Virus record (IMG/VR): IMGVR_UViG_2585427751_000001
From: a virus
Taxonomy: Duplodnaviria > Heunggongvirae > Uroviricota > Caudoviricetes
Strand: one strand, 5' to 3'
DNA length: 17,049 nucleotides
Position numbers: made by a program. Below, in pieces: positions 6,001-9,000 of the stretch (the stretch's first letter is position 1; each line of letters starts with the position of its first letter).

Positions 6001-9000
6001 TAAACACAAAAGACAAACTAACAAAAGACAATATAAAACCTTTTTCGTCCGAGAATTCTGGCGAATCCTCTGACCAGCCAGAAAACGACTTTCCTTTGGA
6101 GAAACTGGATGCTGCAATTCAGAGCGGCAGCAAGTGGGGGACAGCAGAAGACCTGACCGCCGCAGAGTGGATGTTTGACATGGTGAAGACCATCGCGCCC
6201 TCAGCCAGAAAACCGAATTTTGCAGGGTGGGCTAACGATATCCGCCTGATGCGTGAACGTGACGGACGTAACCACCGCGACATGTGCGTGCTGTTCCGCT
6301 GGGCATGCCAGGACAACTTCTGGTCCGGTAACGTGCTGAGCCCGGCTAAACTTCGCGACAAGTGGACCCAGCTCGAAATCAATCGTAACAAACAACAGGC
6401 TGGCGTGACAGCCGGAAAACCAAAACTCGACCTGACAAACACTGACTGGATTTACGGGGTGGATTTATGAAAAACATCGCCGCACAGATGGTTAACTTTG
6501 ACCGTGAGCAGATGCGCCGGATCGCCAACAACATGCCGGAACAGTACGACGAAAAGCCGCAGGTACAGCAGGTAGCGCAGATCATCAATGGTGTGTTCAG
6601 CCAGTTACTGGCAACTTTCCCGGCGAGCCTGGCTAACCGGGACCAGAACGAACTGAACGAAATCCGCCGCCAGTGGGTTCTGGCTTTCCGGGAAAACGGG
6701 ATCACCACAATGGAACAGGTTAACGCAGGAATGCGCGTAGCCCGTCGGCAGAATCGACCATTCCTGCCATCACCCGGGCAGTTTGTAGCCTGGTGCCGGG
6801 AAGAAGCATCCGTTATTGCCGGACTACCAAACACCAGCGAGCTGGTTGATATGGTTTACGAGTATTGCCGGAAGCGTGGCCTGTATCCAGATGCAGAGTC
6901 TTATCCATGGAAATCAAACGCGCACTACTGGTTGGTTACCAACCTGTACCAGAATATGCGGGCCAATGCGTTGACTGACGCGGAATTACGGCGCAAGGCT
7001 GCCGATGAACTGTCCTGTATGAACGCGCGAATTAACCGTGGTGAGGCTATACCTGAACCAGTAAAACAACTTCCTGTCATGGGCGGTAGACCTCTAAATC
7101 GTGCACAGGCTTTGGCGAAGATCGCAGAAATCAAAGCTAAGTTCGGACTGAAAGGAGCAAGTGTATGACGGGCAAAGAGGCAATTATTTATTACCTGGGG
7201 ACGCATAAGAGCTTCTGTGCGCAGGACGTTACCGCGGTAACAGGCGCAACAGTAACCAGCATAAATCAGGCTGCGGCTAAAATGGCGCGGGCAGGAATCC
7301 TGGTCATTGATGGTAAGGTCTGGCGAACGGTGTATTACCGGTTCGCTACCAGAGAAGAACGGGAAGGAAAGGTGAGCACGAATCTGATTTTTAAGGAGTG
7401 TCGCCAGAGTGCCGCGATGAAGCGGGTGTTGGCGGTATATGGGAGGACTACAGCATAAGCATAACTTATGGATTATATGGAAAACTGGTAATTATGCTCT
7501 TTTCTTATGAAAATAAAGAGAAGTTTTCGCTGGCGTTTTATTTGTTCTGTTTTTTCTTGCGGGTTATTCTGATTTGTTTTGATTTGATTTTTTCTGACAA
7601 AAGTAGGGAAAAAATATGTCGCAAGTACTTTCTGTCTTTACCTCCTAAATTACATTCTCTATCAAATGTTGCCATAGTTATGACCCCAGTTTTATATAGT
7701 GTTTCAGCAATTTTTCTGTAGTTTTTTTCTCGCAAAATTGAAGAGTTTTTCTTTGCTGTATTTTCAAGGCTATCTCCTTGTGGTTTAAGACTATTTGGGC
7801 CAAAAAACGTTGTGGATACTGCTGCACTTGTTGTCCGTTTTTTTTGGCCCATTTGGATAGTACTTGGGAGAGGCATGATTTTAATACGCATATAAATAAC
7901 TCCTCTATCAATTGGATTTTGGGAAAATGTTAACATTAATCATGATTAAGGAGTAATTTTAAATCTTCCAATAAAATTTGTTTAAACTCTTGTGTTCTAT
8001 GATCGATATACAACGCAAGTTTGCTTGCATTATCTTCCAGGTCACGTATCTCTCTGTCACCTCGAATAAACCCAACTAAATTTAAACGTTTAGATAGTTC
8101 AGAACTTCCTTCTATGGCATCTTGGAGTATTTGAATGATTTCTGAATTCATTGAGCGCCCGTTTCGTTTGGCTCGTTCAGCTATAGCTTCACGCATCCCA
8201 TCGGGGAAACGGAGGTTAAACTTATCGTAGTCTTTTACTTGTTTGTCAGCCATTGGAACCCCCAAAAAAATGAATGGTGCCATATTGCCACATCAATTCA
8301 ATGGTGGCATTATGGCCTCATGGTGTCATTGTGGCCTCATGAGGTTATGTCAATGGAAAAGAAAGAGGTAAAAATTACCCTTCGCTATCCGCAAAAAGTG
8401 AAGGATGAATTCAAGCGAATTGCTCAGGAGGAAGGGATGTCTGAGAACGCAGCTATTGTTCAGGCGCTTGTATGGGCATTGAAATTTAGAGCACGGATAC
8501 ATGCTCGCTAGAAACAGCGAAGCCCCACTGGCGGCAACCTTAGGGGCTTCTATCGAAAATAACCGCGAAGGAAATATCGACATGAGTATTGTAGCAACAT
8601 CAGATCTGAACTTCCAAGGTGAAGCACTAGTGCCAGTGGCAAATATTGCCGGAATATGGCTAACTTCATCCAACCTAGCAAGAGCACTGAAGTATTCGAA
8701 TAGTCGCGCAGTCACGATGATTTACAACAAATATGCTGACGAATTTTCCAGTAGTATGACTAGAGTGCTTGAAGTCAGTACCTCAGAGAATGATGTCGAG
8801 GTACTTGATCTGAGTACCTCGAAAAGTACTCGAAACTTGAAGAAGAAAGTACGTGTTTTCTCTCTCCGCGGAGCCCATTTGATCGCCATGTTCGCCCGCA
8901 CTCCTGTAGCCAAAGAGTTCCGCCGTTGGGTTCTGGATATTCTCGATCGAGAAGTTCAACAATCCCCAATCATAAAACAATTCACTGATAACGAACTTTG

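Follow-up and report, generated by a model that had tools for sequence, protein, structure and literature searches.

Is the small gene that follows a repressor gene in a prophage a partner of that repressor? The question is raised by a 17,049 nucleotide (nt) stretch of DNA from a virus of the Caudoviricetes (IMG/VR record IMGVR_UViG_2585427751_000001), termed here the window. The window is a lambda-like prophage and is near-identical to Escherichia phage PhiR5_1 (99.9% over positions 7400–8350). It carries an mnt-like gene, and a small open reading frame (ORF), termed orf117, is found directly behind this gene on the same strand. The initial annotation of the window described the ORF as encoding a lysine-rich protein of 132 amino acids (aa) that is translationally coupled to the Mnt-like repressor, and considered that it could be a toxin or an accessory effector. 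The reading favored here, with a probability of about 0.55, is that orf117 is an autonomous moron that was captured into the mnt operon and is expressed in the lysogen, and that it is not a toxin neutralized by Mnt.

The orf117 coding sequence and its start site

The 132-codon ORF, taken from its first ATG, spans positions 7538–7936 of the minus strand. Its composition is as first described. The G+C (GC) content is 0.33–0.34, compared with 0.47 for the whole window, and the product is highly basic and lysine-rich, with 18 Lys, 10 Arg, an isoelectric point of 10.5 and a grand average of hydropathy of −0.65. Direct reading of the product shows no hydrophobic stretch, which agrees with the description of a protein without a transmembrane segment.

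An ORF of such length that begins with ATG was found in only two of 2000 shuffles of the low-GC block in which it resides. Comparison with the Hafnia and Enterobacter alleles shows a proportion of synonymous differences (pS) of ~0.7, which is saturated, and a proportion of nonsynonymous differences (pN) of 0.24 overall and 0.05–0.14 in the core. The ratio of nonsynonymous to synonymous substitution rates (dN/dS) against these alleles is ~0.1. This value indicates that orf117 is under purifying selection. Because of the low dN/dS and the rarity of so long an ORF in the shuffles, orf117 is regarded as a real gene.

The coding sequence is most likely shorter than 132 codons, and encompasses positions 7538–7891 of the minus strand (117 aa and a stop codon). 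Support for this comes from the start positions of homologues, the RefSeq annotation made by the Prokaryotic Genome Annotation Pipeline (PGAP), the dN/dS value and the AlphaFold2 (AF2) model described below. Homologues are 117–118 aa long and all start at the residue that matches Met16 of the 132-codon ORF, with the sequence MRIK or MRVK, and the RefSeq/PGAP protein, WP_021550620.1, is the 117 aa form. A Shine-Dalgarno (SD) sequence, AGAGGAG, is at positions 7900–7906 (minus strand), 8 nt upstream of the ATG at 7891, and is kept as AGGAGTGA across all alleles. DNA homology to the other alleles starts at this SD sequence and there is none upstream of it.

The TAATG junction that was originally noted is present, i.e. 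the mnt stop codon TAA is at 7938–7936 and the first ATG of the ORF at 7936–7934. However, direct reading shows no SD-like sequence before this ATG. The start codon is very probably Met16 (ATG 7891) and not the ATG of the junction, thus the product would be 117 aa in length and its start separated from the mnt stop codon by a 44 nt spacer (positions 7892–7935, minus strand). The 15 additional codons of the longer ORF most likely represent this intergenic spacer. Of the four substitutions by which the window differs from the E. coli variant alleles over the 716 nt mnt-spacer-orf117 stretch, two are in this spacer. The apparent coupling at TAATG probably arose only because the ORF was taken back as far as the nearest ATG. 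Hence the 132-codon ORF exists as proposed, but the homologue lengths, the PGAP call and the SD sequence before Met16 do not support a 132 aa protein, and translational coupling by overlap with mnt is likewise unsupported.

Distribution of orf117 and its genomic contexts

The orf117 family is small. A word-indexed search of 5.8e9 proteins yields 12 clusters, and an exhaustive hidden Markov model search of 1.84e9 representatives yields only the family's own clusters and one low-complexity match. By tblastn, orf117 is present in one of 50,697 phage records, and the mnt-orf117 DNA pair is present in five of 5426 complete E. coli genomes. No relatives turned up when the GTDB species-representative genomes were scanned, and literature searches on PhiR5_1 and WP_021550620 gave nothing relevant. 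Apart from a few metagenome alleles, the members are from E. coli, Hafnia and Enterobacter.

Two types of genomic context are found. Nine IMG/VR loci carry the E. coli allele (98–100% identical); all display the gene order ren-orf117-mnt-arc-ant and their Mnt proteins are 100% identical. Sequence comparison indicates that the E. coli-allele loci are one recent lineage, which is PhiR5_1-like. The divergent alleles are 50–62% identical and comprise six types at more than 20 loci (Hafnia paralvei, Enterobacter and metagenomes), and here the gene is always alone. In Hafnia prophages the homologue is flanked by the replication genes and by ninB (DUF1367). Only 89 nt separate its upstream end from ninB, which is transcribed divergently, and only 30 nt its downstream end from the following gene, which is convergent; these gaps leave no room for an RHH (ribbon-helix-helix) partner gene. 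In Enterobacter and in several metagenome contigs the homologue is divergent from xis and near int. The stand-alone alleles are antisense to the flanking phage operons at every locus, and no co-oriented partner gene was called next to them. No Mnt, Arc or Ant was found by tblastn in their flanks of up to 4–6 kb on each side. The GC content of the homologues in these other hosts is 0.42–0.43, compared with 0.45–0.49 for the surroundings. An RHH gene and a small gene conserved as a pair, which was to be looked for in related prophages, is therefore not what is seen, as all six divergent allele types are solitary.

The stand-alone alleles also share an upstream element. In each of them a −10-like sequence, TATTAT, precedes the ATG by ~24 nt amid otherwise diverged DNA, and three carry a full nTGAAA-17-TATTnT site. 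The window lacks this element and has the 3′ end of mnt in its place.

A separate observation concerns E. coli 2017.02.03CC (NZ_AP027748.1, positions 3356480–3365430), where the orf117-mnt-arc-ant block is intact in a degraded prophage beside tRNA-Arg. This prophage has lost its repressor and replication genes, and a fragment of ren directly adjoins its integrase gene.

The Mnt-like gene and the mosaic block

The gene upstream of orf117 encodes an Mnt-like RHH protein, as was first proposed. It spans positions 7936–8253 of the minus strand, has a predicted chain length of 105 aa and matches the Arc/Mnt family (PF03869, E-value = 6e-20), and its RHH domain and that of P22 Mnt share 47% identity. 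The gene is divergent from an arc-ant operon. The mnt, arc and ant genes, with a predicted sar-like RNA, constitute a P22-type immI cassette that is inserted between ren and ninB.

The Mnt-like protein consists of two parts of differing distribution. Residues 1–47 are the widely shared RHH domain, ~90% identical to that of the Mnt-like proteins of other E. coli and Shiga toxin (Stx) phages. Residues 48–105 (positions 7939–8112, minus strand) are a helical C-terminal domain that is unrelated to other Mnt-like C-termini, including that of P22 Mnt. Among 5.8e9 proteins, these C-terminal 58 residues match only their own E. coli entry, as an identical full-length protein and a fragment. Fusion of a near-identical RHH domain to unrelated C-terminal domains is general among Mnt-like proteins. 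The single-sequence AF2 model of the protein has a predicted local distance difference test score (pLDDT) of 50, and is too poor to show more than that the C-terminus is helical.

The GC content is 0.43 in the RHH part of mnt, 0.33 in the C-terminal part and 0.34 in orf117. The C-terminal half of mnt and orf117 thus form a mosaic block of ~33–34% GC, at positions 7459–8116, which is delimited by composition and a break in homology. Other E. coli and Stx-phage Mnt-like loci match the window over positions 8116–8339 only, i.e. the RHH part and the control region. Because of the shared GC content and the homology break at ~8116, it is probable that the block was acquired as a single piece, through recombination within the conserved segment that encodes the RHH domain.

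The position behind mnt is occupied by different genes in other cassettes. In phage P22 (as annotated in NC_002371) orf59a is between mnt and the mnt terminator and is followed by sieA; the same arrangement of the P22 mnt region is given elsewhere (PMC10461980). In the related prophage of E. coli SCU-113 different cargo is present at the same place, a 160 aa protein encoded at L003:2313–2795 (minus strand) that matches phrog_3983. Edwardsiella phage GF-2 encodes a homologous protein (38% identity) of 171 aa at L031:2767–3282 (plus strand), and this gene overlaps mnt by 4 nt. Salmonella phage SPN3UB has an unrelated 123 aa gene behind mnt, and no gene is present there in the sampled Stx-type prophage (L004) and in a Klebsiella phage. 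There is no similarity of orf117 to P22 orf59a, to P22 sieA or to the cargo behind other Mnt-like genes. With orf59a and sieA in P22, the phrog_3983 protein in SCU-113 and GF-2, and orf117 here, immI cassettes have a variable cargo slot behind mnt, of which orf117 is one occupant. The pairing of Mnt and its partner in SCU-113 and GF-2 recurs across genera, unlike that of orf117, and may be a real two-gene unit.

These data bear on the suggestion that orf117 works with the immI circuit, e.g. that it modulates Mnt or Ant or serves them as a co-factor. The gene adjoins mnt and is co-oriented with it in all ~15 E. coli-type copies, where the Mnt protein is 100% identical, and it seems to have come in along with the unique C-terminus of Mnt. 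However, these copies belong to a single recent lineage, and their linkage is not independent evidence. Homologues are found in prophages that have no mnt, arc or ant within the flanks searched, and other immI cassettes do without orf117 and have unrelated cargo or none. A role as an immunity accessory is thus considered unlikely.

Transcription and the proposed capture of orf117

No terminator-like site was found between mnt and orf117, and for this reason orf117 is most likely transcribed with mnt. A weak sigma-70-like site, TAAACA-17-TAAAAT, is at positions 7956–7984 (minus strand) inside the 3′ end of mnt and is a possible secondary promoter of orf117. It is not distinguishable from chance, since the scan found three sites where 2.6 are expected. 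There is no convincing intrinsic terminator after orf117.

The following course of events is proposed. The gene would move among enterobacterial lambdoid prophages as a small accessory gene. In the PhiR5_1-like lineage of E. coli it would have lost its own promoter, and come to lie 44 nt behind the mnt gene of a P22-type immI cassette. In the lysogen Pmnt would then drive transcription of mnt and orf117 together, and translation of orf117 would start independently at Met16, behind a strong SD sequence of its own, to give the 117 aa protein. The product may serve to benefit the prophage, e.g. by exclusion of other phages or by modulation of the host. The accessory effector option of the initial annotation is in agreement with the data, since orf117 is a low-GC passenger gene that is variable in its presence or absence. 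The distinct composition and the patchy presence (5 of 5426 E. coli genomes) are those of a moron.

Several points weigh against this proposal. Within the E. coli lineage orf117 is polymorphic at four codons (G15S, S34G, Q106E and N116K). Every one of these changes is non-synonymous, and four codons are too few for constraint within this lineage to be demonstrated. Co-transcription with mnt and expression in the lysogen are deduced from the gene layout alone. In addition, the unique low-GC C-terminus of Mnt and orf117 may have arrived together and could interact functionally; their shared low GC content is the sole observation that keeps a functional link between Mnt and orf117 alive.

It may also be argued that orf117 is a silent relic in the E. 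coli lineage, where it would be unexpressed or decaying after the loss of its own promoter. The promoter-like element of the stand-alone alleles is indeed missing here, and the non-synonymous nature of all four polymorphisms is what a relic might display. However, the four changes are all outside the conserved core (residues 46–105), the ORF is intact in every copy and the strong SD sequence has been kept. With no terminator behind mnt, read-through into orf117 is expected. A relic therefore appears improbable.

The predicted orf117 protein

The AF2 model of the orf117 protein, based on an alignment of the seven family sequences, has a mean pLDDT of 69, with values of 75–90 in parts of the core. 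Residues 1–41 are disordered in the model and are rich in Lys, Arg, Ser and Pro. Helices are predicted at positions 42–68, 73–80 and 88–116, the last with a Lys-rich tail, and residues 42–116 constitute the conserved helical core. There are two invariant polar clusters, T75-F-D-R-E-C80 and G84-K-D-R87...R91-H92. The model thus depicts a small, basic, helical protein with a disordered Lys/Arg-rich N-terminal tail and a core that resembles a helix-loop-helix. The protein would be cytoplasmic. Judging from its charge and shape, the most probable activity is binding of nucleic acid, likely as an oligomer.

Searches of Pfam, PHROGs, PADLOC and NCBIfam with the 132 aa and 117 aa forms and with all seven family members gave nothing significant, which bears out the statement that the protein has no recognizable motif. 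The best family matches, SeqA_C (E-value = 0.067) and Fe_dep_repress (E-value = 0.14), were treated as noise. The best profile match in the PDB, a DtxR-like repressor, has an E-value of 0.13 and is not significant. Foldseek comparisons with the PDB and BFVD gave no match with an E-value below 1. Homology and structure prediction, which had been suggested as a check, thus reveal a gene family but no toxin family or fold.

A bolder proposal can be made for the function. The orf117 proteins could be a new family of helix-loop-helix-like nucleic-acid-binding effectors that exclude or disarm other phages in the lysogen. In the PhiR5_1 lineage orf117 would have arrived together with a bespoke Mnt C-terminus, so that its dosage, and possibly its activity, would be tied to the immI antirepressor switch. 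This is a long shot. Should orf117 prove to be an exclusion or defence factor, a small new family would be added to those described, but at present this is a guess.

The possibility of a type II toxin-antitoxin system was raised at the outset. Here the Mnt-like RHH protein would be antitoxin and autorepressor, and orf117 a new toxin bound by the unique Mnt C-terminus. The layout is suitable, as the RHH gene is first and is followed by a small co-oriented gene, in what would be one operon with no terminator-like site between them. The Mnt C-terminus is unique and has a low GC content like that of orf117, as expected for a toxin-specific antitoxin domain. There are also weak matches, at the level of the RHH domain, to FitA, HicB and BrnA antitoxin models, and the pair has been kept intact in the degraded prophage of E. 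coli 2017.02.03CC. Against this, the six divergent allele types are solitary, carry a promoter-like element of their own and leave no space for a partner gene. The toxin-antitoxin explanation fails because the two genes are not conserved as a pair, which the initial annotation had named as a ground for refutation. A constitutively promoted toxin without its antitoxin would not be kept at a dN/dS of 0.1. In addition, orf117 matches neither a toxin family nor a PADLOC model or toxin fold, the downstream gene has the stronger SD sequence and is separated by a spacer with no overlap, and the complete cassette of mnt, arc, the sar-like RNA and ant already explains the presence of an Mnt-like gene. 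It is quite improbable that orf117 is such a toxin. An RHH gene followed by a small, seemingly coupled ORF need not be a toxin-antitoxin pair, and at this locus the overlap is probably an effect of ORF extension.

Least probable is a minimal HEPN-like RNase. The idea comes from the invariant R87-x4-H92, located where the last helix begins, which resembles the HEPN Rx4-6H motif. Both residues are invariant together with D86, R91, D77, R78, E79 and C80, as might be expected of a functional polar site. The idea was rejected for want of profile or fold support, since hmmscan gives no HEPN family even at E-values up to 10 and the AF2 model has three helices, not the four-helix HEPN bundle.

Other features of the immI cassette and the window

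Upstream of the cassette, on the plus strand, are the genes O (positions 5451–6470), P (6467–7168) and ren (7165–7458). The Arc-like RHH protein is encoded at 8353–8511 (plus strand) and has a chain length of 52 aa (PF03869, E-value = 3e-4; phrog_582, E-value = 1e-9), and the gene is also called by PGAP. It is followed by the gene for the antirepressor Ant (8501–9250, plus strand), which displays Bro-N and P22AR_C domains (PF10548, E-value = 2.5e-16; PF02498, E-value = 6e-9; phrog_245, E-value = 3e-61). At the arc/ant junction a sar-like antisense RNA is predicted at positions 8516–8580 of the minus strand (Rfam RF00262, E-value = 1e-4; 34 bits, below the gathering score of 43). The match suggests that P22-style antisense control of ant has been kept in this nin-region cassette.

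The divergent control region between mnt and arc is at positions 8254–8352, and its layout matches the annotated Pant/Pmnt/operator region of P22. A promoter scan places a Pant-like promoter at 8285–8313 (plus strand). Within 8268–8338 are a 19 nt direct repeat in three copies (ATGGTGGCATTATGGCCTC-like) and an 18 nt inverted repeat (8274–8291 and 8304–8321). These repeats overlap the Pant-like promoter and are candidate Mnt/Arc operators.

Two other loci in the window were noted. Downstream of the cI-like repressor gene (3854–4582) and on the same strand, positions 2156–3807 (minus strand) encode a HipA_2-like kinase (2959–3807, PF20613, E-value = 1e-6) and a DUF3037 protein (2156–2962), with a 4 nt overlap. 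The two genes occupy the position of rexAB in lambda, and are a more credible toxin- or defence-like pair than orf117 and mnt. A 168 aa protein (phrog_1779, E-value = 2e-99) is encoded at 9489–9995 (plus strand), in the interval from ant to ninB. PhiR5_1 has this gene too, but in E. coli 2017.02.03CC it is replaced, so this is another variable cargo position.

Comparison with known systems

The predicted core of the orf117 protein resembles basic helix-loop-helix DNA-binding domains, but the resemblance is structural only and is drawn from the model. With RHH toxin-antitoxin systems (ParD/ParE, CcdA/CcdB and FitA/FitB) the locus shares the order of an RHH gene and then a small gene, and an RHH protein with a variable C-terminus. 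It differs in that the orf117 partner is not conserved, the product has no toxin fold or family, the gene is mostly solitary and there is no true overlap with the upstream gene.

The P22 immI region is closer. In P22 the genes on the mnt side are expressed by the prophage. Both loci have mnt divergent from arc-ant and a small ORF behind mnt on the same strand that is in the mnt transcript, or in the window probably so; a sar-like RNA is predicted in the window as well. Unlike the P22 locus, however, the cassette in the window is not beside the tailspike gene but within a lambda-like early operon, in its ren-ninB (nin) region. Furthermore, orf117 is unrelated to orf59a and sieA, and the C-terminal domains of the two Mnt proteins are unrelated.

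Lambdoid morons, e.g. bor and lom of lambda, are independently transcribed and compositionally distinct genes between conserved phage genes. The orf117 family is similar in its low GC content, antisense orientation, promoter-like element in the stand-alone alleles, patchy presence and differing points of insertion. It differs in that orf117 in the window seems to be without a promoter of its own and would be on the transcript of a regulator, and its product matches no described moron family. Thus orf117, an uncharacterized gene deposited as a “hypothetical protein”, fits a known kind of element, the phage moron.

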